From: a phage
Length of the DNA: 64,000 bases
Sequence record: OZ336093.1
Direction: 5' to 3' (one strand)
Positions 9,658 to 63,556 of this stretch are shown piece after piece. Below the pieces are notes generated by a model. The model was not told where the DNA came from, did no database searches, and saw only the letters and a list, made by a program, of their open reading frames with translations. A program made the position numbers and the translations under genes. Position 1 is the stretch's first letter. Every line of letters begins with the position of its first letter.

Positions 9658-9716
9658 TTTTACTCCCTCTAAAATCATTAACCCCATACATTACTGCAAA
9701 AAATTATAAAAAGCAA

Positions 9717-9750
9717 GTTGACAATACACTTGACAAGGTGTTAATCTTTG
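9717..9750 (+). promoter_or_regulatory. candidate promoter region (tandem TTGACA boxes) in divergent intergenic region
   Basis: TTGACAATACACTTGACAAGGTG; motif CTTGACAAGGTG recurs at 24992 and 56236. Confidence 0.4.
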
Positions 9751-9855
9751 CGAAGTGGGTTTTTACTTAAAAGGTTACTTAACAGTTTAACTATACAGAT
9801 ACTTTAAAACTCTTAAAAGATTATTTAATAGCTTTTAAAAAGCTTTAAAGTATAA

Positions 9856-9872
9856 CGTATAGAATACGTTAA
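9856..9872. promoter_or_regulatory. palindromic operator-like site AACGTATAGAATACGTT
   Basis: perfect 7 bp inverted repeat with 3 bp spacer, 40 bp upstream of first plus-strand gene. Confidence 0.4.
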
Positions 9873-9914
9873 GATAAAAGATTAAAACTTAATAGTTACT
9901 TAAAAGAGGCTTAC

Positions 9915-35282: not shown

Positions 35283-35307
35283 AGGCTGCTTCGGCGGCCT
35301 TTTTTAT
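35283..35307 (+). terminator. rho-independent terminator
   Basis: GGCTGC-TTCG-GCGGCC followed by TTTTTT. Confidence 0.65.
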
Positions 35308-35366
35308 TTGTATTTTGTGCAGAGTGCTGTATAATTGTTGTCACGATAAACTAAACAGGAGAACCA

Positions 35367-35915
35367 ATGAAGAAATTGATTCTAGGTTTGTGCTTAATGT
35401 TTACAGCACACTTATCTTATGCAGTTGACTGCCCAGAGCTATCAATTAGCCAAAAAGTAAACATGTTAAAAGCTTACCAGTATGGTGAGAATAACATGGG
35501 TAAAGGTTGGGGTATAACTCTAGCTGCTATAGCCTTACAAGAGTCAGAGTTAGGTCTGAAGGTAGAGAATAAAAAGACACATGATTATGGTATTTTCCAG
35601 AATCACTTGAAGACTGTTGTAAAGCGTAACAAAATTAGCCCTAATGTGGCTAAAAAGAAACTCTTAAAAGATTTTGACTATGCTGCGAAGGAAACGCACA
35701 AAGAACTTGAGTTTTGGACAAAGGTGCATGGTCAGCCAAAGTCAAAGAAGACTTTACAAAAAGTTTTAGCATCATATAATGCTGGGTATTCGTACAGAAT
35801 CCCTAAAGCTAAGAAGTATTCTCAAGATGTCTATAACAACATGAAAGTTATTGCTCAATGTGAATTTGCAACAAACATTTCTAAGGTAAATCATGAAAAA
35901 ATTAAGAAAGTCTGA
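35367..35915 (+). CDS. secreted lytic transglycosylase-like protein
   Basis: signal peptide MKKLILGLCLMFTAHLSYA; SLT-like motif ALQESELG...GIFQ. Confidence 0.5.
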   Translation: MKKLILGLCLMFTAHLSYAVDCPELSISQKVNMLKAYQYGENNMGKGWGITLAAIALQESELGLKVENKKTHDYGIFQNHLKTVVKRNKISPNVAKKKLLKDFDYAAKETHKELEFWTKVHGQPKSKKTLQKVLASYNAGYSYRIPKAKKYSQDVYNNMKVIAQCEFATNISKVNHEKIKKV

Positions 35916-38221: not shown

Positions 38222-38423
38222 AAAGACACGGAAACTTATCAGGTCAGCGGTGTTCATTGGACGAAATAAGGTCATACCATTTGCAGCAAATGATGTGATA
38301 GCTTACCGGAAGAACTTAGTATTCACTGACTGTTTACGTGGCTTCATCTCTGAACCATTAGAACACTTTAAAAGTCGTTGTGGTAAAGGCATCATCATTC
38401 AAGAGGTAATTATTCATGGCTGA
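38196..38423 (+). CDS. hypothetical protein
   Basis: 75 aa ORF. Confidence 0.4.
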   Translation: MKVILARDKKTRKLIRSAVFIGRNKVIPFAANDVIAYRKNLVFTDCLRGFISEPLEHFKSRCGKGIIIQEVIIHG

Positions 38424-38616
38424 TTTCTGCAAAGACTGTGCTATCGAAATGTTTGGACGTGATACAGGTGATTTAAAAGGTCTTATCACTGAAGATGACT
38501 TTAAAGCTGGCTATGCAATGCCAGTAATCTGTGAAGGTTGTGGGTGCATCTGGGTAGACCACGAAGGGCAACGTGTAAAACCTTCAGAAGATAAAGAATC
38601 TTGGGAGAGATGTTAA
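38416..38616 (+). CDS. hypothetical Cys-rich small protein
   Basis: 66 aa, CKDC...CEGCGC. Confidence 0.4.
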   Translation: MADFCKDCAIEMFGRDTGDLKGLITEDDFKAGYAMPVICEGCGCIWVDHEGQRVKPSEDKESWERC

Positions 38617-39402
38617 ATGGGTATTGTAAAAATCATCAAAGGTGATATCTTTGACGCATTTGATAAAGGTAAGTTTGACATCATTGGTCACGGTTGCAAC
38701 TGTATGAACTTCATGGGTGCAGGTATTGCAGCAACTATTTCCAAGCGTTATCCAAAAGTGTATGATACTGACACAGAAGTTTACCTGTTTGCAGGTGGCA
38801 TTCGTCACAAACCCTGTGAAAATTTACTAGGTAATTTCTCTGTAGCACGTTTAAAACAAGGCCGTATAGCTAACCTTTACACCCAACTTCATACTGGTAA
38901 AGATGCCCGATACAGTGCTTTAGAGTCATCTTTGAAACAGCTTAACAGATACTGTGAAGTTAACCAGTTGAAGAAAGTTGGTCTACCTATGATTGGTGCA
39001 GGTATCGGTGGGCTTGACCCTCAAGCTGTCACAGTTATCATTAATCAGGTGATGAAGAGTGTAGATGTTTATCTGTATGTCTATGAAGCAAAAATGTATA
39101 ATGAGTTACACTCAGGTTGGAAAAACTACTGTGAACCAGAATACTTTGCAGGTGTAGTTGTGTTCACAGATAACGAAGTTACCCTCTTCAGACGAAGAAA
39201 AGGTAAGATACATCAAAGTAACCCTCCGGTTGAAAAGATGTCTCTGAGTAACGCTCTAGTTACCCACCTGTCGAAGAGCAATCACAGGATTGCAGTAACA
39301 TTTGGCAGTGATGCAGATACTTATATCTATGCAAGAACTGATGAGGATATCGAGACAGTTTTCTCTTCACCAGAAGTTACCTTCTTAGACGCAAAGAACT
39401 AA
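38617..39402 (+). CDS. macro-domain protein (ADP-ribose binding/processing)
   Basis: N-terminal IIKGDIFDAFDKGKFDIIGHGCNCMNFMGAGIAATI matches macro-domain layout (GDI..., Gly-rich AGIA loop). Confidence 0.65.
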   Translation: MGIVKIIKGDIFDAFDKGKFDIIGHGCNCMNFMGAGIAATISKRYPKVYDTDTEVYLFAGGIRHKPCENLLGNFSVARLKQGRIANLYTQLHTGKDARYSALESSLKQLNRYCEVNQLKKVGLPMIGAGIGGLDPQAVTVIINQVMKSVDVYLYVYEAKMYNELHSGWKNYCEPEYFAGVVVFTDNEVTLFRRRKGKIHQSNPPVEKMSLSNALVTHLSKSNHRIAVTFGSDADTYIYARTDEDIETVFSSPEVTFLDAKN

Positions 39403-39469
39403 GAAACTCTGTAGAATATTCACAATAGACCAAGCCTTTCTTATCTGGTAAATTTTTCAGGTAAGGAGG

Positions 39470-39670
39470 GCTTTTTCATTTCAGAATTGTGCAGGTAGAT
39501 TTCTATAGAGAAACCTGTAGAGAAAATATTGAACTCCAAAGAGAAAATTCATTTTCAAACTGTGCAGATAATCTCCAAAGAGCTTTTTCATTTTCAAAAC
39601 GTGCAGACCCCGCTCAGGTCGGGCAAGGAAAATCATTTTAGATTTGTGCAGGTAGGTTTTTATAGAGAGC
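39470..39670. repeat. four iteron-like direct repeats (core TTTTCAnAnnTGTGCAG)
   Basis: copies centred near 39489, 39562, 39601, 39647; copies 1 and 4 share TGTGCAGGTAGrTTTyTATAGAGA. Confidence 0.6.
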
Positions 39671-39710
39671 CAGACCAACCCCTCTCCCCCTCTTACTCCC
39701 CCTCTCCCCA
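39671..39710. repeat. C-rich polypyrimidine tract
   Basis: ccagaccaacccctctccccctcttactccccctctcccc. Confidence 0.8.
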
Positions 39711-39831
39711 AAAGTCAAGAGAAAAATTTGTAGCGGATTGAAAAATAATTCTTGATTTGTGTTCTGTTTTGTGGTAGTCGTGTGCGCCCGTTTCATTACA
39801 GTTTTGCCAAAAATATTTTTAAAATTTTTTC

Positions 39832-39860
39832 TTGACTCTTTGAACGTGGTTATCTAGTAT
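39832..39860 (+). promoter_or_regulatory. sigma70-like promoter TTGACT-N17-TAGTAT followed by GGGGAGG/CCTTCCCC stem-loop
   Basis: first unit of the recurring promoter/stem-loop/leader cassette. Confidence 0.5.
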
Positions 39861-39923
39861 TTGCATCAACGGGGAGGGAATGACCTTCCCCACTAAATAA
39901 AGTCCTAAACTGGAGATTCAAAA

Positions 39924-40307
39924 ATGGCATATCGTGCACCTAAATTCATCAACAAAGACAACTTTCGCAACGCACTGGAGAAGTCACTTGATGAGAATTT
40001 TAAAGGTAACATTATCGTTGTTCACGCATTCAATTTTAAGTATGATGTAAACGGGAATAGAATCAACCATTACACGGCAACCATGTTAGATGGTACACTT
40101 TCAAGTGAAAAAGCCGTACTAAATGCACTGGCAGGACGTGGAAAGGTATTAGTAAGATGTGATAAGAGACGTTATCAGGGCGGCGCATATGGTTATGATG
40201 ATGCTGTTTACCATCTTGAAAATATGGGCTATCAAGTAGAAAAAGCTGGAGCATCACAAATCATCGGCAGCGATGGTTATGTAACTATCTTCAAAATTAA
40301 CAAATAA
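39924..40307 (+). CDS. hypothetical protein (ORFan cassette gene)
   Basis: 127 aa; conserved leader ...CTAAACTGGAGATTCAAAA before ATG. Confidence 0.5.
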   Translation: MAYRAPKFINKDNFRNALEKSLDENFKGNIIVVHAFNFKYDVNGNRINHYTATMLDGTLSSEKAVLNALAGRGKVLVRCDKRRYQGGAYGYDDAVYHLENMGYQVEKAGASQIIGSDGYVTIFKINK

Positions 40308-42000: not shown

Positions 42001-42025
42001 CACTGGTTTTCAGATAGATTAAATT
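41997..42025 (+). promoter_or_regulatory. sigma70-like promoter TTGACA-N17-TAAATT
   Basis: followed by GGGGAGGGAATGACCTTCCCC stem-loop and conserved leader. Confidence 0.55.
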
Positions 42026-42088
42026 ACACACCAACGGGGAGGGAATGACCTTCCCCACTAAATAAAGTCCTAAACTGGAGATTCAAAA

Positions 42089-43043: not shown

Positions 43044-43072
43044 TTGACACTGATTTTTAGATAGATTAAATT
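43044..43072 (+). promoter_or_regulatory. sigma70-like promoter TTGACA-N17-TAAATT
   Basis: near-identical to the promoter at 41997. Confidence 0.55.
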
Positions 43073-43136
43073 ACTCATCAACGGGGAGGGAATAACCTTC
43101 CCACTAAGTAAAGTCCTTAAACTAGGAGATTCAAAA

Positions 43137-44601: not shown

Positions 44602-44691
44602 ACAAGCCTGATAAAAATCTGTAAATTGTCAATAAACGGGGAGGGAATGACCTTCCCCACTAAATAAAGTCCTAAACTGGAGATTCTAAAA

Positions 44692-46465: not shown

Positions 46466-47098
46466 CGTCTATCCAATCCTTATACAATCCCTTTCCTTTC
46501 CTTTCCAGAATCTTACTAGACCTTAAAAGCAATAACTCTATAGTCTACTCTATAACCTCTTATCAAATCAACTTAAATAAAAGCCAATAACCCCAGAAAG
46601 GGGATGGCCCATTTAAACGCTCTATAAAGCTCTATAACATCCTTATCAACCTAACTTAAGGGATTGCATTAACTCACCCTAAAAAGCCCTTTATAAAGCT
46701 TCCTAGAGACTTAAAAGAATCTTATAAGGGTGTAAGCTTTATCGTCTCGTTAGTATTCTTGTGAATAACTAAACAACCCCTTGATAGTCACTAAAAAGTA
46801 TGTTATAGGGGCTATAAAGTAGCTTAAAAGTTGCTTAAAAGTTACGTAAATGCTAGCCCCCTTAACATTTTCTTAACAATTTCTTAACAATCCCTACATA
46901 GTTATGCTTGTTAGAGACTTGTTAGCCCCTTGTTAAATCTCTGTTAAGACCACGTAAAAACCTTGTAAGAGTCTTTGACATAGCCTTAAAAGCTCCTGTA
47001 AAGCCCTATAAAGAGCTATCCATACAGTTGAGGGGTAGATACTAGGAAGAGGCTTAAAAGAACTTATAAGGGGCTATAGAGAGCTTTTAAGAGGCATG

Positions 47099-48061
47099 TT
47101 TAGAGAATCACTAAGAGAGAAAGGGAACGATAAGAAAAGAGATAGTGACCATGTTAATAGCTTGTTAAAAAGATTAAACACTTGTTAGGAACTTGTTAAT
47201 TATCCCTACAAAATAACTCTTTAAAATTAACTTGTTAGCTCTTGTTAGTCATCTGTTAAGATTCTGTAAAGTCTATGTATCAACTGTTAAGAAACTGTTA
47301 CATCCCTGTTAGTTCTGTTAAGAGTCTATTAAGACCTTTGAAGAGTTGTTAAGAGCTTGAGAGAGTTGTTAAGAGATTGTTAAGGATATTTTAAAATTTT
47401 GCAAAGTACTTGTAAGGGAGTTGTTAAGGGTTACCAAGCAGATATACATCCTCAACAGATATTTTTGAGTTCCTTCAAAGACCCTAAAAAATGACTTGAT
47501 AGCCCTATTTTATAAAAATTTTAAAATTCTGAATAATTACCTAGACAGTCTTTTAAAAATACAGGCATAAACAGGCTTATTTAGAGAATCACTAAGAGAG
47601 AAAGGGAACGATAAGAAAAGAGATAGTGACCATGTTAATAGCTTGTTAAAAAGATTAAACACTTGTTAGGAACTTGTTAATTATCCCTACAAAATAACTC
47701 TTTAAAATTAACTTGTTAGCTCTTGTTAGTCATCTGTTAAGATTCTGTAAAGTCTATGTATCAACTGTTAAGAAACTGTTACATCCCTGTTAGTTCTGTT
47801 AAGAGTCTATTAAGACCTTTGAAGAGTTGTTAAGAGCTTGAGAGAGTTGTTAAGAGATTGTTAAGGATATTTTAAAATTTTGCAAAGTACTTGTAAGGGA
47901 GTTGTTAAGGGTTACCAAGCAGATATACATCCTCAACAGATATTTTTGAGTTCCTTCAAAGACCCTAAAAAATGACTTGATAGCCCTATTTTATAAAAAT
48001 TTTAAAATTCTGAATAATTACCTAGACAGTCTTTTAAAAATACAGGCATAAACAGGCTTAT
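47099..48061. repeat. perfect tandem duplication, 2 x 481 bp, non-coding
   Basis: unit TTTAGAGAATCACTAAGAGAG...AACAGGCTTAT at 47099-47580 repeats at 47580-48061, identical as far as I can read; dense in CTGTTAAG/TTGTTAG motifs. Confidence 0.85.
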
Positions 48062-48504
48062 AAGATACCTTGTTAGTACCGTGTTAGACCTTGTGAGATA
48101 AGGTCTGTAAAGATATTCCTGTTAAGTTTGTTAAAACAGTCTATATAGAGGCTTAGTAGCTCCTAGTGAACACCTATAGAGGGTATCATAGCTGACATAG
48201 AGATTAAGAGGTGTATAGGAGCTTCTAAGAGGGTGTAGAGAGATGGTTAAGGTGATTGTATAGGTTGTTAAGAAGGCTTGTTAGAGGGCTTGTTAGAAGG
48301 GTTATACAGAGGGGCTATTAAGACCACTAGATAGTTACTAAGACACTATATAGTACTATATAACTATATAGAGAGTAAGATTAAGAAGGTTGTTAAGAAG
48401 GATAGATATTTTATTCACATATGATGGTGACCCAGAGGTTGGGACAACCGATAAAATTTTATAAAAATTAAAAAGCCCCCGATTAAGGAGGCTCTTAAGA
48501 TATT

Positions 48505-58410: not shown

Positions 58411-58487
58411 CTCTGTTTAGCTCAGCTTGGTAGAGCGTTCCGTTTGGGGCGGTAAGGCCGGAGGTTCAAGTCCTCCAACAGAGACCA
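58411..58487 (+). tRNA. tRNA-Pro (anticodon TGG)
   Basis: hand-folded cloverleaf, 7 bp acceptor, T-arm GGAGG-TTCAAGT-CCTCC, CCA encoded. Confidence 0.7.
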
Positions 58488-58494
58488 AATTAAT

Positions 58495-58572
58495 GTTCCA
58501 GTAGACAAAATGGTAAAGTCACCACTCTTTCAAAGTGGATATCTGAGGGTTCAAATCCCTTCTGGAACGCCA
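58495..58572 (+). tRNA. tRNA-Glu (anticodon TTC)
   Basis: acceptor GTTCCAG/CTGGAAC, anticodon loop CTTTCAA, CCA encoded. Confidence 0.7.
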
Positions 58573-58579
58573 GTTTTGA

Positions 58580-58655
58580 CAGAAGACCAATTACAGCAAA
58601 CTTAATCTTATTCATCTGAAGGTAAATCGGACAAAGAAGAGATTTGGTCTGGTCA
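58580..58655 (+). ncRNA. structured RNA element, copy 1 (5' AGAAGACCAA / 3' TTGGTCTGG closing stem)
   Basis: conserved 5' block CAGAAGACCnnTTACAGCAA and 3' block GGTCTGG; stem covaries between copies. Confidence 0.5.
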
Positions 58656-58663
58656 TTAAGAAT

Positions 58664-58740
58664 TGCGGGTATAGAGAAAGGGCGTCTCACATGTCTCATT
58701 AGCATGGTATCGGCAGGTTCGACTCCTGCACCCGCCTCCA
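58664..58740 (+). tRNA. tRNA with anticodon CAT (Met or Ile2), irregular fold
   Basis: T-arm GCAGG-TTCGACT-CCTGC and CCA present; acceptor/D-arm register ambiguous. Confidence 0.5.
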
Positions 58741-58746
58741 AATTTG

Positions 58747-58808
58747 CAGAAGACCGTATTCAGCAACAAAATACTTTTTGCGGATAAAAGAAAAAACACG
58801 GTCTGGCA
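58747..58808 (+). ncRNA. structured RNA element, copy 2 (5' AGACCGT / 3' ACGGTCT stem)
   Basis: same conserved blocks as copy 1 with compensatory stem changes. Confidence 0.5.
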
Positions 58809-58817
58809 ATGTATTAA

Positions 58818-58894
58818 GGTTAGGAAGCACATAAGGTATGTGCGGTCGCCTGTTAAGCGAATGGCACAGGGTTCGAATCCCTGACTAACCGCCA
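58818..58894 (+). tRNA. tRNA-Asn (anticodon GTT)
   Basis: acceptor GGTTAGG/ACTAACC, loop CTGTTAA, CCA encoded. Confidence 0.7.
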
Positions 58895-58903
58895 AATTTA
58901 AAT

Positions 58904-58991
58904 GTGTCGTTATCCCGTAGATGGTAGCGGTGGGGACTGTAAATCCCTTGTCATTGAGACTCGGTAGGTTCGACTCCTACACGGCACACCA
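58904..58991 (+). tRNA. tRNA-Tyr (anticodon GTA), long variable arm
   Basis: loop CTGTAAA, long variable arm, T-arm GTAGG-TTCGACT-CCTAC, CCA encoded. Confidence 0.7.
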
Positions 58992-58996
58992 ATAAA

Positions 58997-59074
58997 GGTT
59001 ATGTAGTTTAATTTGGTTAAAATGCTCCCCTGTCACGGGAGATGATGAGGGTTCAAATCCCTTCGTAACCGCCA
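58997..59074 (+). tRNA. tRNA-Asp (anticodon GTC)
   Basis: stem CTCCC/GGGAG around loop CTGTCAC, CCA encoded. Confidence 0.7.
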
Positions 59075-59135
59075 ATTTTGAGAGGGCTATTTAGCCCCTC
59101 CCTTAAAGGGTTCTTACGAGTATCCTTTAAAGGGG

Positions 59136-59211
59136 CAGAAGACCAAATACAGCAAGAATGTATGAAATTTCAAGCCAATTTAATTTTGAAAATTTAAAAC
59201 TTGGTCTGGCT
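59136..59211 (+). ncRNA. structured RNA element, copy 3 (5' AGACCAA / 3' TTGGTCT stem)
   Basis: conserved CAGAAGACCAAATACAGCAA and TTGGTCTGG. Confidence 0.5.
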
Positions 59212-59222
59212 CAACAAATTTA

Positions 59223-59356
59223 CAGAAGACCGTTTACAGCAAAACTTAAACAATCTATTTCTCCGGTAAAGAAAAGGCGAAGGTTCGATTCCTTCACTCG
59301 GCAGATGTCGAGTTGGTGTAATGGTAGCACTTAAGATGATAAACAACGGTCTGGTA
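59223..59356 (+). ncRNA. structured RNA element, copy 4, with internal tRNA-like module
   Basis: closing stem AGACCGTT/AACGGTCT; interior carries T-arm-like GAAGG-TTCGATT-CCTTC and D-arm-like GTTGGTGTAATGGTAGCAC but no complete tRNA. Confidence 0.5.
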
Positions 59357-59503
59357 ATTATCTTTGTAGATAAGTTATTAAGCTTACCTGTGAGTATGCG
59401 ACCACAAAGGGTGAAAGGGTAAATTCTAGATTTAAACCCAACAAGGCACATCGCTACAGACCTTAAGCAAGTCTGGGTAGCTTATCTACAAAGATAATTT
59501 AAT

Positions 59504-59579
59504 GGAAGTGTAGCAGAATGGTGATGCGGCAGACTTTTAATCTGACAGGCGATGGGTTCGAATCCCTCCACTTCTACCA
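59504..59579 (+). tRNA. tRNA-Lys (anticodon TTT)
   Basis: loop CTTTTAA, T-stem with one bulged T, CCA encoded. Confidence 0.6.
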
Positions 59580-59583
59580 ATAT

Positions 59584-59660
59584 GGTTCAGTCGCAGATAA
59601 GGTAATGCAAGGGTCTCATAAGCCCTATGAATGTGGGTTCGATTCCCATCTGAACCTCCA
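59584..59660 (+). tRNA. tRNA-Met (anticodon CAT)
   Basis: loop CTCATAA flanked by GGG/CCC stem, acceptor GGTTCAG/CTGAACC, CCA encoded. Confidence 0.7.
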
Positions 59661-59661
59661 A

Positions 59662-59738
59662 GCTGGTATAGTTAAGAAGGTTATAACACTCCCCTGATAA
59701 GGGAACATCGGTGGTTCGATTCCACCTACCAGTACCAA
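59662..59738 (+). tRNA. tRNA-Ile (anticodon GAT)
   Basis: loop CTGATAA, T-arm GGTGG-TTCGATT-CCACC, CCA encoded. Confidence 0.65.
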
Positions 59739-59753
59739 TTTCAATAAAGTTGT

Positions 59754-59782
59754 TGACATTGAGATGTGACTACTTTATAGTA
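59754..59782 (+). promoter_or_regulatory. sigma70-like promoter TTGACA-N17-TATAGT inside the tRNA array
   Basis: consensus -35 with 17 bp spacer and TATAGT -10; followed by about 200 nt with no tRNA. Confidence 0.6.
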
Positions 59783-59983
59783 ACCTTAGTTTTCGTTGCG
59801 TAGCGTCTATTTTGCAAATTTAAAATAAATGCAAACGACAATGTTTTTCTGGCAGTAGCTTGATAGGCTAAACACCAGCGAGGTCTTCCAATCCCTCATC
59901 AAAGAATTTGGCGTACTAGCCCACGGTATGATTAATAAGGTGGGCATCTTTAAGGGCTTTCTAAGAGAGTCTTTAAAGATTAA

Positions 59984-60060
59984 TGCACCCTTAGTTCAAT
60001 TGGATAGAGCAACGGTCTTCTAAATCGTTAGTTACAGGTTCGAATCCTGTAGGGTGTGCC
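59984..60060 (+). tRNA. tRNA-Arg (anticodon TCT)
   Basis: loop CTTCTAA, T-arm ACAGG-TTCGAAT-CCTGT, CCA encoded. Confidence 0.7.
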
Positions 60061-60203
60061 AATTAGTTAGCAGATTACTTAGACGACCTAAGCGGGTCTT
60101 CCTGTAGGGAGGTGGTCTGTATCTCATGTTTTCCAGAACATGTAAATAATCTGAGAAGGGGCTTTACAGTGTTGAGATAATACGGTAAGCTTCGAATTAT
60201 AGT

Positions 60204-60286
60204 ATGGGACGATGTTAAGACTCTAAGGCATGAGCAACGGCCTCCAAAACCGTTTCAAAGGGGTTCAAATCCTCCGTCCCATGCCA
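60204..60286 (+). tRNA. tRNA-Trp-like (anticodon CCA), irregular
   Basis: anticodon arm resembles E. coli tRNA-Trp (CTCCAAA loop); about 7 extra nt between acceptor and D-stem. Confidence 0.45.
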
Positions 60287-60299
60287 AAGTCTTATTAGG

Positions 60300-60387
60300 G
60301 GTAGGTAGCGGCTAATGGCAGCCAAACAGTCTTGAAAACTGTTGCCACTGTAGAGATACGGTGAGGGTTCGACTCCTTTACTTACCG
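60300..60387 (+). tRNA. tRNA-Ser (anticodon TGA), long variable arm
   Basis: loop CTTGAAA, long variable arm; CCA not encoded. Confidence 0.65.
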
Positions 60388-60544
60388 CCTAATAAGATTT
60401 AAAGCCAAGCTTCATTCGGATGTTGCTTTGGTATACCGCGTGTATTGTTGTACGCACTGATAAAGCACCTAGTAGGTGTCACGGAGAAGAGATAATATCA
60501 AGCTCTCCAAAGGTTCTAGTCACCGGATTAAACAAGACTATGCA

Positions 60545-60568
60545 AAGACCTTTTTAGGTCTTTTTAGA
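60545..60568 (+). terminator. hairpin terminator within tRNA array
   Basis: AAGACCT-TTTT-AGGTCTT followed by TTTT. Confidence 0.5.
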
Positions 60569-60645
60569 GGGCTTCTAAGGTTATTACAGCTTGTTGTGGA
60601 ACCTTGTTGCTTAGGTTCTTAGAAGTTCTCTAAAAAGATTTAATG

Positions 60646-60723
60646 GGAGATTGACGGTAATTGGTAAACCTACCATCCTTAGAAGTTGGTGTTTGAGGGT
60701 TCGAATCCCTTGTCTCCTACCAA
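60646..60723 (+). tRNA. tRNA with anticodon TAG (nominally Leu) on a short-variable-arm scaffold
   Basis: loop CTTAGAA, acceptor GGGAGAT/GTCTCCT, CCA encoded; weak D-stem. Confidence 0.5.
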
Positions 60724-60730
60724 ATTAATG

Positions 60731-60806
60731 CAGGTGTAGCAAAATGGTTATGCGGCTGACTCTTAATCAGTAAGACGATGGGTTCAATTCCCTCCACCTG
60801 TACCAG
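60731..60806 (+). tRNA. tRNA-Lys (anticodon CTT)
   Basis: loop CTCTTAA; paralogous to the TTT copy incl. bulged T-stem; CCA encoded. Confidence 0.6.
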
Positions 60807-60812
60807 ACATTG

Positions 60813-60888
60813 GGGATGTAGTTTACATGGTTAAAACATAAGTTTTGCAAACTTAAGTACAGGGTTCAATTCCCTGCTTCTCCACCAA
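60813..60888 (+). tRNA. tRNA-Ala (anticodon TGC)
   Basis: D-stem GTTT/AAAC, loop TTTGCAA, T-arm CAGGG-TTCAATT-CCCTG, CCA encoded. Confidence 0.7.
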
Positions 60889-60894
60889 TTAGTG

Positions 60895-60969
60895 CATCCA
60901 TAGTTTAAACGGGAAAATTACAGTCTTCCAAACTGAGGTTGAGGGTTCGATTCCCTCTGGATGCTCCAA
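60895..60969 (+). tRNA. tRNA-Gly (anticodon TCC)
   Basis: loop CTTCCAA, acceptor GCATCCA/TGGATGC, CCA encoded. Confidence 0.65.
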
Positions 60970-60976
60970 ATTAATG

Positions 60977-61053
60977 CTGCTTTCGTATAATTGGCTATTA
61001 CACATCCCTTGTAAGGATGGAAATGCGGGTTCGAGTCCTGTGAGCAGCACCAA
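60977..61053 (+). tRNA. tRNA-Thr (anticodon TGT)
   Basis: stem CATCC/GGATG around loop CTTGTAA, CCA encoded. Confidence 0.7.
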
Positions 61054-61055
61054 TT

Positions 61056-61147
61056 CAGAGGTCAAGTGAAAGACCGCTGGTGTCAACTGAAGACCGTAAC
61101 AAATTCCACGGAGTTGAGTTAGCGGCACAACTTCAGACCTCTTTCAC
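61056..61147 (+). ncRNA. possible small structured RNA between tRNA-Thr and tRNA-Val
   Basis: about 90 nt with internal complementarity (AGTGAAAGA recurs; GAGGTC pairs with GACCTC) and no tRNA fold. Confidence 0.3.
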
Positions 61148-61222
61148 ACTCGCTTAGTTTATATGGTAAAACATCACCCTTACAAGATGAAGAAAAAGGT
61201 TCAAGTCCTTTAGTGAGTACCA
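61148..61222 (+). tRNA. tRNA-Val (anticodon TAC)
   Basis: loop CTTACAA, T-arm AAAGG-TTCAAGT-CCTTT, CCA encoded. Confidence 0.65.
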
Positions 61223-61223
61223 T

Positions 61224-61301
61224 GTTCCAGTATCCCAATTGGCAGAGGATGCAAGCTCAAACCTTGTATTAGTGACGGTTCGAATCCGTCTTGGAACACC
61301 A
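61224..61301 (+). tRNA. tRNA with anticodon CAA (nominally Leu) on a short-variable-arm scaffold
   Basis: stem GCAAG/CTTGT around loop CTCAAAC, T-arm GACGG-TTCGAAT-CCGTC, CCA encoded. Confidence 0.55.
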
Positions 61302-61306
61302 ATTTT

Positions 61307-61382
61307 GCAGGATTAGTTCAAATGGATAGAGCAACAGTCTACGAAGCTGTTAATAGGGGTTCGAATCCCTTATCCTGCGCCA
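61307..61382 (+). tRNA. tRNA-Arg (anticodon ACG)
   Basis: loop CTACGAA, D-arm GTTC..GAGC, CCA encoded. Confidence 0.7.
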
Positions 61383-61399
61383 GATAAAAAGGTGATACT

Positions 61400-61642
61400 A
61401 TGCAAACATTAACAGTAGTTGAACATGAAAACTGTGAGAATATTGAGTTTGTCAGGGTCATTGGTGTTGAACACCACATTTTCTTAAAAGTAGGGTACTT
61501 ATGTGACCCCGCTAGAGTAGAAAGATTTATACGTGATTGTTTTGGTGGTAGACAGCTAAAGAGTGTTATTTTTGAGACAGTTTTACCAGAAGGTTTAGAA
61601 ACGAATAATAACATTTATCTCCTTACAAGGATTAGACGATGA
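61400..61642 (+). CDS. hypothetical protein embedded in tRNA array
   Basis: 80 aa ORF starting 18 nt after tRNA-Arg. Confidence 0.35.
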   Translation: MQTLTVVEHENCENIEFVRVIGVEHHIFLKVGYLCDPARVERFIRDCFGGRQLKSVIFETVLPEGLETNNNIYLLTRIRR

Positions 61643-62196
61643 GATATTTAAAATATGCTTCATGGATTTTCCTAGCTTTGCTAGAACCATTAGCAGCAAC
61701 CTTAGCAGTTATCTTAGCACCTTTCGTAGTTCCATTTTACAGTGAGAAGAAAGGCCACTTACCTTTCGGATTTAGATGGATGGAGACATATGACAACCCA
61801 ATTGATGGTGACGAAGGTCATATCGAACGATGGGCTAAGATTAGAAAGATTGGTAAGCTGGGTGTCTACATGCAGAGAGTCGGATGGCTCTGGAGAAACA
61901 AAGCTTATAACTTCTCTTACCATGTATTAGGAAGAGATGTAAAAGATGTTACTAAGTGGAAAGGTAATATCAACGTAAGTTCTGACCCTGAAGATAATCA
62001 GACAGGTTATCTCCTAATGTGGAACAGTAATGCTTGGGGATTATTCGCTTTTATCCCATCAATTAAAGTCTTTGGTAAACAGTTTTACTGGAGAATTTAT
62101 ATTGGATGGAAACTAAAAAGTGTTGTCCCAGAAGAAAGAGCATTCTCAAGGGAAAGAGTTATGTTGGCATTCTTTATTCATCCACTGAGAAAGTAA
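61639..62196 (+). CDS. hypothetical membrane protein embedded in tRNA array
   Basis: 185 aa, N-terminal TM segment, Trp-rich. Confidence 0.45.
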   Translation: MRYLKYASWIFLALLEPLAATLAVILAPFVVPFYSEKKGHLPFGFRWMETYDNPIDGDEGHIERWAKIRKIGKLGVYMQRVGWLWRNKAYNFSYHVLGRDVKDVTKWKGNINVSSDPEDNQTGYLLMWNSNAWGLFAFIPSIKVFGKQFYWRIYIGWKLKSVVPEERAFSRERVMLAFFIHPLRK

Positions 62197-62204
62197 AGAT
62201 TTAA

Positions 62205-62280
62205 AGGGGATTAGTTTACAAGGTTAAAACCTCGGTCTTTGAAATCGAAGAAGTTGGTTCAATTCCAACATCCCCCGCCA
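62205..62280 (+). tRNA. tRNA-Gln (anticodon TTG)
   Basis: loop CTTTGAA, weak 1-72 pair as typical for tRNA-Gln, CCA encoded. Confidence 0.65.
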
Positions 62281-62282
62281 AT

Positions 62283-62361
62283 ACTCCATTACTCCAATTG
62301 GCAGAGAGGCCAGACTTAAAATCTGTGTTATGTATCGGTTCGAATCCGATATGGAGTACCA
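62283..62361 (+). tRNA. tRNA with anticodon TAA (nominally Leu) on a short-variable-arm scaffold
   Basis: loop CTTAAAA, T-arm ATCGG-TTCGAAT-CCGAT, about 7 nt variable loop, CCA encoded. Confidence 0.55.
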
Positions 62362-62366
62362 AATTT

Positions 62367-62442
62367 AGCGGTATAGCATAACTGGCAATGCAACAGTCTC
62401 TGAAGCTGTCCTATTAAGGTTCAAATCTTTATGCCGCTGCCA
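62367..62442 (+). tRNA. tRNA-Gln (anticodon CTG)
   Basis: loop CTCTGAA, D-stem GCAT/ATGC, CCA encoded. Confidence 0.6.
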
Positions 62443-62471
62443 CTTCTAAGGGTTCTTACGAGAGTCCTTAA

Positions 62472-62547
62472 ATGTGGCCTTATCATAAATGGTAATGACC
62501 CATGCTGTGAACATGGTCTATACGGGTTCAAATCCCGTAGGTCACCC
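62472..62547 (+). tRNA. tRNA-His (anticodon GTG)
   Basis: loop CTGTGAA, discriminator C, CCA encoded. Confidence 0.65.
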
Positions 62548-62553
62548 CAATTT

Positions 62554-62629
62554 ATAGTCCAAGTAGCTTATATGGTTAAAGCGCGTGTCTGAAAAACATG
62601 AGAAGAGGGTTCAAATCCCACTGGACTAC
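62554..62629 (+). tRNA. tRNA-Phe-like (anticodon GAA), irregular
   Basis: loop CTGAAAA, D-stem GCTT/AAGC; acceptor and T-stem register off by one. Confidence 0.5.
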
Positions 62630-62647
62630 CAATTTCAAAGGTGCTTA

Positions 62648-63382
62648 ATGAAAGAGATGACAGAACAAGGTAAGGAGATTTTTAATCTCTTAAAAACCGG
62701 TAAAGGGTTTTCTAACCCACTTATTACTGGTGCAGCAGTTCTCGGTGGAACCGTAGCTGCTTCTACATCACTTGTAAGCTCTATTAGTTCTGTAACAGAC
62801 CCTACAATGCAGGAGAAACTTGTTGCTGCTGGACTTACAACAGTCCTTCTAAACAGCTTTACAACAAGCCTTACAAGCACTACAGCAACTACTAAGACCC
62901 TGACAGACTACGGTCAAAAATCTATTGATGAGTTTTCATCACGTATGCAGGTAGCAAAGGGATATTCCAATGTTATGGGTGCAGCAGGAGAACAAGTTGG
63001 TTGTACACCGTTCAGTGGTATTATGGGTGTTGCTACAGAATATGGTCAAAAAGCTATTGATACGATTAACAGTACACTAGAGAGTGTTAACAATGTATTA
63101 AGTGACTTACAAGACGCTATTGACAAGGGTCTTGATACTGTTTCTGATTTAGCTAACCAAGCTGTCAGTAAGATTAATGAAGGTATCTCAAAGATTACAG
63201 CTTATGCAGATGAAGTTGTGCAGATGATTGAAGAAGAAGCTGCCCTTATTGCAGAGTACCTTAAAACGAATATCAATGGGTTCTTAGCAGGTATCTTACC
63301 AGACTGGTTTGATGATGCCTGTAAAACTGGTGTAATTGACACTATTGCAACACCAGAAATGAAGAACGCATTACAGAAATAA
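62648..63382 (+). CDS. hypothetical Ser/Thr-rich protein embedded in tRNA array
   Basis: start moved to first ATG downstream of tRNA-Phe (track start 62585 overlaps the tRNA). Confidence 0.45.
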   Translation: MKEMTEQGKEIFNLLKTGKGFSNPLITGAAVLGGTVAASTSLVSSISSVTDPTMQEKLVAAGLTTVLLNSFTTSLTSTTATTKTLTDYGQKSIDEFSSRMQVAKGYSNVMGAAGEQVGCTPFSGIMGVATEYGQKAIDTINSTLESVNNVLSDLQDAIDKGLDTVSDLANQAVSKINEGISKITAYADEVVQMIEEEAALIAEYLKTNINGFLAGILPDWFDDACKTGVIDTIATPEMKNALQK

Positions 63383-63383
63383 T

Positions 63384-63476
63384 GGAAGATTAACCCTAAA
63401 AGGTAAGGGAGCAGTTTGCTAAACTGCCAGTAGCTGAGAAATCGGTGTACCAGTTCAAGTCTGGTATCTTCCTCCA
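63384..63476 (+). tRNA. tRNA-Ser (anticodon GCT), long variable arm
   Basis: stem GCAGT/ACTGC around loop TTGCTAA, long variable arm, CCA encoded. Confidence 0.7.
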
Positions 63477-63480
63477 ATTT

Positions 63481-63556
63481 GAATCCGTGACAGAAATGGC
63501 TATGTGCCTGTCTGCAAAACAGGTTTATAAGGGTTCGAGTCCCTTCGGATTCTCCA
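63481..63556 (+). tRNA. tRNA-Cys (anticodon GCA)
   Basis: stem CCTGT/ACAGG around loop CTGCAAA, CCA encoded. Confidence 0.7.

Follow-up and report, generated by a model that had tools for sequence, protein, structure and literature searches.

The window analysed here, a stretch of 64,000 nucleotides (nt) of phage DNA (sequence record OZ336093.1), is the genome of a Felix O1-like myovirus of the genus Felixounavirus, subfamily Ounavirinae. Between a gene encoding a macro-domain protein and the first of the small cassette genes lies a non-coding gap of 521 base pairs (bp; 39403-39923), which carries an array of four direct repeats, R1 to R4 (Table 1). An earlier note on this DNA had suggested that the array, together with a neighbouring C-rich tract and an AT-rich stretch, resembles a replication origin or a regulator-binding array. 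The macro gene is the last gene of the upstream early operon and stands directly 5' of the array in every lineage compared, namely Felixouna-, Susp-, Moogle- and Kolesnikvirus and an uncultured contig type, L031. The T-tract of the operon terminator continues straight into R1. This terminator is also annotated in wV8, KhF2 and ASO1A, and an equivalent hairpin occurs in Erwinia phage Tian. On its 3' side the gap is followed by many small genes in a long row, every one of which has a promoter and a hairpin of its own. The 1.8 kb surrounding the array are 98% identical to Escherichia phage VpaE1_ev78 and have matches in 237 phage records.

Table 1. Features of the array locus and of the promoter-linked fifth site (positions in the window)
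Feature	Position	Strand	Sequence or description	Basis
Solitary fifth site	35304-35322 (promoter span 35304-35335)	+	TTATTTGTATTTTGTGCAG	relaxed motif scan
Macro-domain gene	38617-39402	+	261 amino acids (aa)	Pfam Macro PF01661, aa 25-141, E 5e-7; PHROG 335 'phosphatase'
Intrinsic terminator of the macro operon	39432-39473	+	17-pair stem, then T-run	terminator scan
R1	39476-39494	+	TCATTTCAGAATTGTGCAG	repeat and motif scans
R2	39549-39567	+	TCATTTTCAAACTGTGCAG	repeat and motif scans
R3	39588-39606	+	TCATTTTCAAAACGTGCAG	repeat and motif scans
R4	39633-39651	+	TCATTTTAGATTTGTGCAG	repeat and motif scans
C-rich tract (+ strand) / G-quadruplex-type motif	39679-39709	-	G4-AGA-G5-AGTAAGA-G5-AGA-G4	motif scan
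Candidate leftward promoter P_L	39690-39718	-	TTGACT-17-TAAGAG; points into the array	read from sequence and alignment
Candidate rightward promoter P_R1	39752-39757 and 39775-39780	+	TTGATT-17-TAGTCG	sequence and alignment
Promoter P_R2 of the first cassette gene	39832-39860	+	TTGACT-17-TAGTAT	promoter scan; equivalent position annotated in ASO1A
First small cassette gene	39924-40307	+	driven by P_R2

The repeats and their conservation

All four copies have the same orientation and share the motif TCATTT(T)-N6/7-GTGCAG, of 18-19 bp. They span 176 bp, in agreement with the four copies within 180 bp of the earlier note, whose literal consensus TTTTCAnAnnTGTGCAG matches only one copy at one mismatch or fewer since the internal length varies by 1 nt between copies. 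The pattern TCATTT-N{5,9}-GTGCAK has four matches in the window, which are the four repeats, against 0.22 expected, and none of 100 shuffled sequences reaches this number. TCATTTT-N6-GTGCA with at most one mismatch likewise finds these four places only in the 64 kb; with at most two mismatches the matches are at chance level (14 in the window, 11.3 expected). The site is bipartite and asymmetric, consisting of TCATTT(T), 6-7 variable bases and GTGCA(G/T), with the two halves about one helical turn apart and TCATTT and GTGCA as its invariant parts. The 3'-half occurs as two variants, GTGCAGGTA and GTGCATAG. Each site is preceded by an A4 or T4 tract, and the two are interchangeable: TTTT is found in 42 and AAAA in 36 of 78 distinct units. 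A partial AAAAT/ATTTT palindrome is restricted to the A-type copies. The start-to-start spacing in the window is 73, 39 and 45 bp. R1 and R4 share an extended unit of 36 nt with 89% identity, and both are followed by TATAGA 9 nt downstream. No large inverted repeats or palindromes were found at the array by the repeat scan.

In five Ounavirinae lineages the array comes after the terminator of the macro gene. Repeat number and orientation are kept in Felixouna-, Susp- and Mooglevirus, where the start-to-start spacing is 73-75, 39-41 and 45 bp. Kolesnikvirus (Erwinia phage Tian, Salmonella phage SE5) has four copies spaced by 37, 37 and 39 bp, and the uncultured L031-type contig of 88 kb has five, following a macro gene that there encodes a macro domain alone (148 aa); the copy number among relatives ranges from three to five. 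A two-repeat pattern was scanned against 2.9 million viral contigs and returned 31 loci, 30 of which are on Ounavirinae-type contigs (51-94 kb). The remaining locus (L023), on an unrelated podovirus-like contig, has two identical motif-containing 60-nt repeats 5' of a gene adjoining a large-terminase-like open reading frame (ORF), and was judged a chance match. A search for more distant loci by means of the macro protein gave close relatives only.

Averaged over 28 aligned Felixouna-, Susp- and Mooglevirus versions, column identity is 0.92 in the repeat cores and 0.81 in the spacers. The corresponding values for codon positions 1, 2 and 3 of the macro gene are 0.84, 0.87 and 0.78, that is, below those of the repeat cores. 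The earlier note had made its proposal depend on conservation in relatives, and this is what the comparison revealed: number, position, orientation and spacing are kept in five lineages.

A protein-coding origin of this conservation can be dismissed. The spacers carry indels of 2, 4 and 2 nt between genera, not multiples of three, and when 33 distinct versions are aligned, each of the three ORFs that cover the array is seen to suffer frameshifts or 1-6 stops; the breaks occur in wV8, in Susp-, Moogle- and Kolesnikvirus and in the L031-type contig. ORFs are nevertheless annotated over the array in some GenBank records (wV8 gene 13, and minus-strand ORFs in Sf15, 3HA14, Tian and UAB_Phi87). The array has no signature of a structured RNA: neither strand folds better than its dinucleotide shuffles (z = +0.59 and +0.96), and nothing relevant was found over it in Rfam at E ≤ 1.

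One further copy of the motif lies outside the array. The relaxed pattern WTTT-N7-GTGCAGR has five matches in the window, the four repeats and the solitary fifth site, against 0.29 expected, and none of 100 shuffles reaches five. The fifth site comes immediately after the rIIB terminator, and 7 nt separate its end from a perfect -10 box, TATAAT (35330-35335), so that the site covers about -40 to -20, the -35 and spacer region, of its predicted promoter. In a complete relative of 89 kb, the array copies and the promoter-linked site are the only convincing sites genome-wide. Genomes of the Moogle- and Suspvirus type keep ATTTG, TGTGCAG and TGTATAAT at the fifth site, with changes in the bases between them. 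The gene at 35367-35915, first after rIIB, appears from the sequence to be the first gene of an operon of about 4 kb which ends with the macro gene, an extent deduced from the ORF map and the two flanking terminators. On this extent, one site would lie in the operon promoter and four just past the operon terminator. Read by eye, the product of 35367-35915 is a signal-peptide protein with lytic-transglycosylase-like motifs (ES..., GIFQN, YNAG); in relatives it is annotated just as 'phage protein' or 'hypothetical protein'.

Promoters and the C-rich tract in the gap

The best conserved block of the gap is 39710-39780, with a mean column identity of 0.93 over 28 genomes. Two -35-like boxes in it, AGTCAA and TTGATT, are arranged back to back at a distance of 33 bp and would belong to the candidate promoters P_L and P_R1. 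Both are read as promoters from the sequence, and the -10 boxes of both lack the usual final T in the window; for P_L this places it under the threshold of the promoter scan. The P_L -10 box reads TAATAG in wV8 and TAGCCT in VpaE1. Tian has a better back-to-back pair, with TTGACC-18-TATACT leftward and TTGACT-17-TATATT rightward. Any transcript made in the leftward direction would cross the array in antisense orientation. Minus-strand sigma-70 promoters formed by the repeats themselves were also considered and rejected: Tian has two good matches and the window a single weak one, and they are not conserved.

The AT-rich stretch of the earlier note is modest. The G+C content of the window is mostly 0.37-0.41, and two patches of the gap (39720-39760 and 39800-39840) reach 75-80% A+T. 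Both coincide with A/T tracts 5' of -35 boxes, and the AT-rich part is mostly DNA upstream of promoters.

The polypyrimidine tract is real, though 31 nt long and not 40, with pyrimidines at 30 of the 31 positions. It is the only pyrimidine run of at least 24 nt and, on the minus strand, the only canonical G-quadruplex motif in the window. However, it belongs to a segment between R4 and the AGTCAA box (39658-39725) that exists in Felixounavirus as two unrelated alleles, both of 68 nt. The allele lacking the C-rich tract, VpaE1-type, is carried by 10 of the 22 Felixounavirus-type variants listed (L014, L016, L018, L019, L024, L026, L028, L032, L036 and L039). Column identity over 39658-39709 is 0.63, and it seems that the length of the segment is kept and not its sequence. 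The G-quadruplex motif is present in Susp- and Mooglevirus, reduced to three runs in Kolesnikvirus and absent from the L031-type contig. The tract is a biallelic, dispensable segment, and the place that the earlier note gave it in the element is not supported.

Five metagenome contigs of one IMG/VR sample (L101, L103, L110, L020 and L046; sample 3300045988) end about 130-415 bp past the macro gene. They represent co-occurring Felixounavirus strains, and their ends fall inside or just past the array. These are probably assembly breaks, caused by the biallelic segment and the repeated promoter modules, rather than biological ends. The modules in question, of 59-70 nt, comprise a 5' leader, a hairpin and a ribosome-binding site; they precede several small cassette genes and recur at 39865-39923, 42020-42088, 43067-43136 and 44621-44690. 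Their repetition explains why matches to the query recur three to seven times per genome in BLAST.

A possible operator-type array or replication origin

The conservation pattern argues strongly that the repeats, read as DNA and held by strong purifying selection, serve a single sequence-specific DNA-binding protein as its binding sites. An RNA motif would not tolerate the exchange of TTTT for AAAA before TCATTT, whereas a DNA site could. Of what the earlier note proposed, a protein-binding array is well supported, the element being conserved, non-coding and free of an RNA signature. Of the features looked for as specific to an origin, an adjacent initiator gene, helical phasing and a skew switch were not found. 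The binding protein is most likely phage-encoded. Consensus sequences for sigma-E, sigma-54, CRP, Fur, IHF, Fis, LexA and the P1 ParB box A, compared by eye, gave no consistent match.

We tentatively favour, at somewhat less than even probability, an operator-type array for a candidate regulator of early transcription. Three considerations favour a regulator. The only other copy of the motif occupies the -35 and spacer region of a predicted promoter; the array has a terminator on one side and a promoter cluster on the other, where two early units meet; and, as said, the three origin-specific features just named are not found. Once made, the protein would occupy the promoter site at 35.3 kb and shut off or modulate the operon of about 4 kb. 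The four clustered sites, placed past the operon terminator and 5' of the back-to-back sigma-70-type promoters that would drive the small-gene cassettes, could act as high-occupancy auxiliary operators, through cooperative binding and possibly through looping to the promoter site 4.2 kb away. Alternatively, they could form a roadblock or insulator between the terminator, the leftward promoter and the cassette promoters. The binding itself, the identity of the protein and the direction of regulation are all inferred steps of this scheme.

Multi-site and long-range operators are familiar in phages, for example in the looping between OL and OR of lambda, in the flanking sites of 186 CI and in the p4 sites between divergent promoters of phi29. 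The array resembles them in having one motif both at a promoter core and as a cluster kilobases away, and in the position of the cluster beside back-to-back promoters, as in a temporal switch. It differs from them in that its sites are asymmetric direct repeats and not dyads, the cluster lies off the promoter cores, the phage is strictly virulent, and a repressor or activator gene was not found among the neighbours of the array.

Several observations weigh against an operator. Phage repressor operators are typically dyads, and TCATTT and GTGCA are not mutually complementary. Direct-repeat arrays in non-coding phage DNA are more often origins than operators. The clustered sites overlap no strong promoter core and are 100-360 bp 5' of the rightward promoters, and their centre-to-centre spacings of 37-45 bp do not correspond to integral helical turns, which disfavours simple cooperative binding on one face of the DNA. 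Pfam and PHROG searches gave no candidate regulator gene among the neighbours. By chance alone, a single additional match to the relaxed motif would be no rarity (0.29 expected per window), and the weight of the fifth site rests on its position and conservation. Moreover, it was not found in the available flanks of Kolesnikvirus or the L031-type contig, where the array is kept, and the function of the array cannot therefore depend on it.

The genes flanking the array have no DNA-binding or Rep hits in Pfam or PHROG and, apart from the macro gene, belong to PHROG families without assigned function. A distant 99-aa 'transcriptional regulator' appears, as an annotation label only, in relative D4. 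Immediately upstream of the macro gene, an ORF of 66 aa (38416-38616), whose stop codon abuts the macro start codon, has two Cys pairs (CxxC ... CxxCxC, zinc-ribbon-like) and no Pfam hit. To judge from these residues it is a possible nucleic-acid-binding candidate. A small ORF is annotated at the matching place in SUSP1 and Sf15 (66 aa each) and in SE5 (57 aa).

An origin function of any kind is the main rival, a strong one though less probable than the operator. In its fullest form, the array would be the primary origin of the subfamily: the four repeats would act as iterons for an initiator or origin-organising protein, the adjacent promoters would provide an activating or priming transcript, and the A/T-rich DNA upstream of the promoters would melt. 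Where present, the G-rich non-template tract could in addition stabilise an R-loop formed by leftward transcription. Unique direct-repeat clusters beside promoters and A/T-rich DNA are the typical architecture of phage origins, and the layout recalls lambda ori, T4 oriE, the T7 primary origin and the origin of lactococcal phage c2. The order of same-orientation 18-19-bp repeats, strand-asymmetric tract and A/T-rich DNA with promoters fits this scheme. At least three direct repeats of about 17-22 bp in one orientation and at one locus would be expected of it, and four are present on the plus strand, in a single-locus, deeply conserved cis site. Promoter-like sites aimed leftward into the array occur in Felixounavirus and Kolesnikvirus, and in Tian the G-rich tract would lie about 85-105 nt into the putative leftward transcript. 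The replisome is T7-like (family-A polymerase and primase-helicase), which makes a transcription-primed origin plausible, and no origin has been reported for this phage group in the literature searched.

Comparison with known origins brings out the differences. Iteron-type origins include lambda ori, with four O-protein sites and an A/T-rich strand-asymmetric region, the iterons of T4 oriE and the iteron plasmids. The array shares with them the four direct repeats of one orientation at a unique non-coding locus, followed by an asymmetric tract, A/T-rich DNA and promoters. Unlike these, it has no initiator gene in cis: no gene of the Rep or O type adjoins or overlaps it, and a whole-genome annotation lists polymerase, primase/helicase and ligase and no initiator. 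The repeats are spaced by 37-45 bp (73-75 bp for R1-R2) and are without helical phasing, whereas known iterons are phased at about 22 bp. The asymmetric tract is dispensable, being absent in the 10 of 22 listed variants mentioned above, and the fifth copy, within a promoter 4.2 kb away, suits a transcription factor better. As to an A/T-rich unwinding element, the two 40-bp patches of high A+T could supply one but coincide with the A/T tracts 5' of -35 boxes, and the repeat scan showed no repeated element of the 13-mer type. At 39.5 kb there is no change in GC skew; its switches at about 10 kb and 46-48 kb follow the gene strand, although this is a weak test in phages.

Transcription-primed origins are exemplified by T7, with phi1.1A/B and an A/T-rich region, by the non-coding primer transcript of lactococcal phage c2 and by the G-rich hybrid of ColE1 RNA II. 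The gap is similar to these in its strong promoters, its A/T-rich DNA, the T7-like replisome genes of the phage and the G-rich non-template tract that, in many of the genomes, the candidate transcript would traverse. However, such origins need no iterons, the G-rich tract is polymorphic here, and P_L of the window is weak, its -10 box lying inside the C-rich tract without the conserved final T. It also seems possible that the array serves as both operator and origin.

The Felix O1 genome paper identified no origin and assumed early transcription from divergent promoters in the interval that separates gene 96 from gene 97. The region of the window which matches that intergenic region, 9688-9914, is both a GC-skew minimum and a point of divergent transcription, between an ORF of 909 aa on the minus strand and the primase/helicase block. 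The 909-aa ORF is presumably the DNA polymerase, to judge from the analogous layout of D4.

Direct-repeat arrays of this general kind are well known. This one is newly described as far as the literature was searched, where we found no description of the array or of any origin in Felix O1-like phages. The Felix O1 genome paper lists only exact repeats of at least 24 bp, does not describe the array and states that the temporal regulation of transcription is not known. The text of the Bas63 essentiality study gives no intergenic result for the array locus. Felix O1-like phages are classic phages for Salmonella typing, and therapeutic and biocontrol cocktails now commonly contain them. As a candidate cis-acting control element, the array with its copy at a promoter is the clearest that the subfamily offers; it is conserved, easily tested and relevant to a widely used phage group, if not conceptually surprising. 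The 18-19-bp motif could be used to isolate the binding protein, and the five sites are a small set to mutate. Whether the locus is an operator hub or an origin matters for phage engineering, in the choice of safe insertion sites and the design of minimal genomes, as well as for essentiality screens with intergenic insertions and for the switching of mosaic small-gene cassettes.

Less likely roles and features at the genome end

It is improbable that the repeats act as RNA, either in a leftward non-coding transcript from P_L or in a read-through product. Such an RNA might be antisense to the 3' end of the macro operon, or a type III antitoxin mimic (pseudo-ToxI-like) directed against a host abortive-infection toxin. 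Candidate leftward promoters do exist, and the repeat period of 37-45 nt falls within the range of type III antitoxin repeats; the array has in common with ToxI and pseudo-ToxI repeat RNAs that its direct repeats, of some 36-45 nt, are placed in non-coding phage DNA. GTGCAG/AAATTC may bear a superficial likeness to ToxI. Unlike ToxI, the array has an irregular period (73 bp for R1-R2), exchanges of its A4/T4 tracts, and no host counterpart, RNA structure signal, relevant Rfam hit or upstream promoter in the orientation of the repeats. Rightward transcription through it is unlikely because it lies just past a strong terminator. Mimicry of a host or plasmid array, whether a type III antitoxin array or a CRISPR-like repeat, was rejected since no blastn match was found in PLSDB (72,556 plasmids) or in 5,426 E. 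coli genomes. The two-repeat pattern, scanned over one genome per GTDB species, gave 44 hits, all in unrelated phyla and none in Enterobacteriaceae. The lack of a plasmid, E. coli or enterobacterial reference counterpart argues against such mimicry.

Very little probability attaches to a DNA-entry signal analogous to that of T5, in which a repeat block bound by a protein or host factor would pause entry of the genome. The block would then separate the first-entering set of about 20 small cassette genes for host takeover from the rest, and Felix O1-like myoviruses would deliver their genome in stages. The array is about 8 kb, or about 9% of the genome, from the right physical end. The untranslated repeat region that forms the T5 injection-stop signal is conserved, lies at 7.9% of the genome and contains DnaA boxes (Davison, bioRxiv 10.1101/866236). 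Both regions are untranslated, repeat-rich and better conserved than the surrounding genes, and both border small early genes at 8-9% of the genome from a physical end. Only the T5 region has nested inverted repeats, palindromes and eight paired DnaA boxes and is located inside a terminal repeat of 10 kb, whereas the array consists of four simple direct repeats outside a terminal repeat of 0.5-0.6 kb, next to cassette genes that point towards the end and not away from it. The Kolesnikvirus repeat 3' halves (TGTGCATAG, CGTGCATAA) are one mismatch from the complement of the DnaA box, TGTGNATAA. The copies of the window, read on the complement (ACCTGCACA, ATCTGCACA, GTCTGCACG), have two to three mismatches to TTWTNCACA, and large inverted repeats or palindromes of the T5 type are absent. 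No two-step entry is reported for Felix O1-like phages in the literature searched.

It is just as doubtful that the repeats are tandem special promoters, each replacing a -35 box in an activator- or alternative-sigma-dependent manner and firing rightwards into the cassettes. The fifth-site motif stands exactly at the -35 and spacer position, 7 nt before its perfect TATAAT, and R1 and R4 have TATAGA at 9 nt. However, the critical last T is missing from TATAGA, nothing resembling a -10 element stands at the matching distance from R2 and R3, and the Kolesnikvirus copies have no consistent one. A general promoter class was rejected, as the motif is absent elsewhere in the window and upstream of all other genes.

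Least probable of all is a functionless relic, left when duplicated copies of the terminator tail decayed. The T-tract of R1 is also that of the terminator, and the fifth site comes after a terminator as well; but conservation of the cores exceeds that of codon positions 1 and 2 in the macro gene, and the cores persist across genera with diverged, indel-bearing spacers.

A genome terminus or packaging site was rejected, the terminal repeat being about 7.2 kb downstream of the array. The annotated 581-bp direct terminal repeat of Pr103Blw maps to 46856-47435 of the window, and the record-end junction lies at about 47572. Felix O1-like phages have direct terminal repeats of 0.58-0.61 kb (Bardina et al., PMC4837284; PMC8303462). 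A unit of 481 bp is present twice in tandem, with 99% identity, at 47092-48061 and overlaps the homologue of the Pr103Blw repeat. Most simply, this is the junction of the two terminal-repeat copies of a record, and the window would therefore cross the physical genome ends.

The same part of the window has dense motifs of the TTGTTAA/CTTAACA type (46600-47440 and 48260-48375) and small tandem repeats, CTTAACAATTT (2.8 copies), AAGAGTTGTTAAGAGCTTG (3 copies) and TTGTTAGAAGGC (2.9 copies). A similar TTAACA-rich tract comes right after the repeat array on the L031 contig (about 470-760, minus strand). Further downstream, 26 tRNA genes are clustered on the plus strand at 58411-63556.

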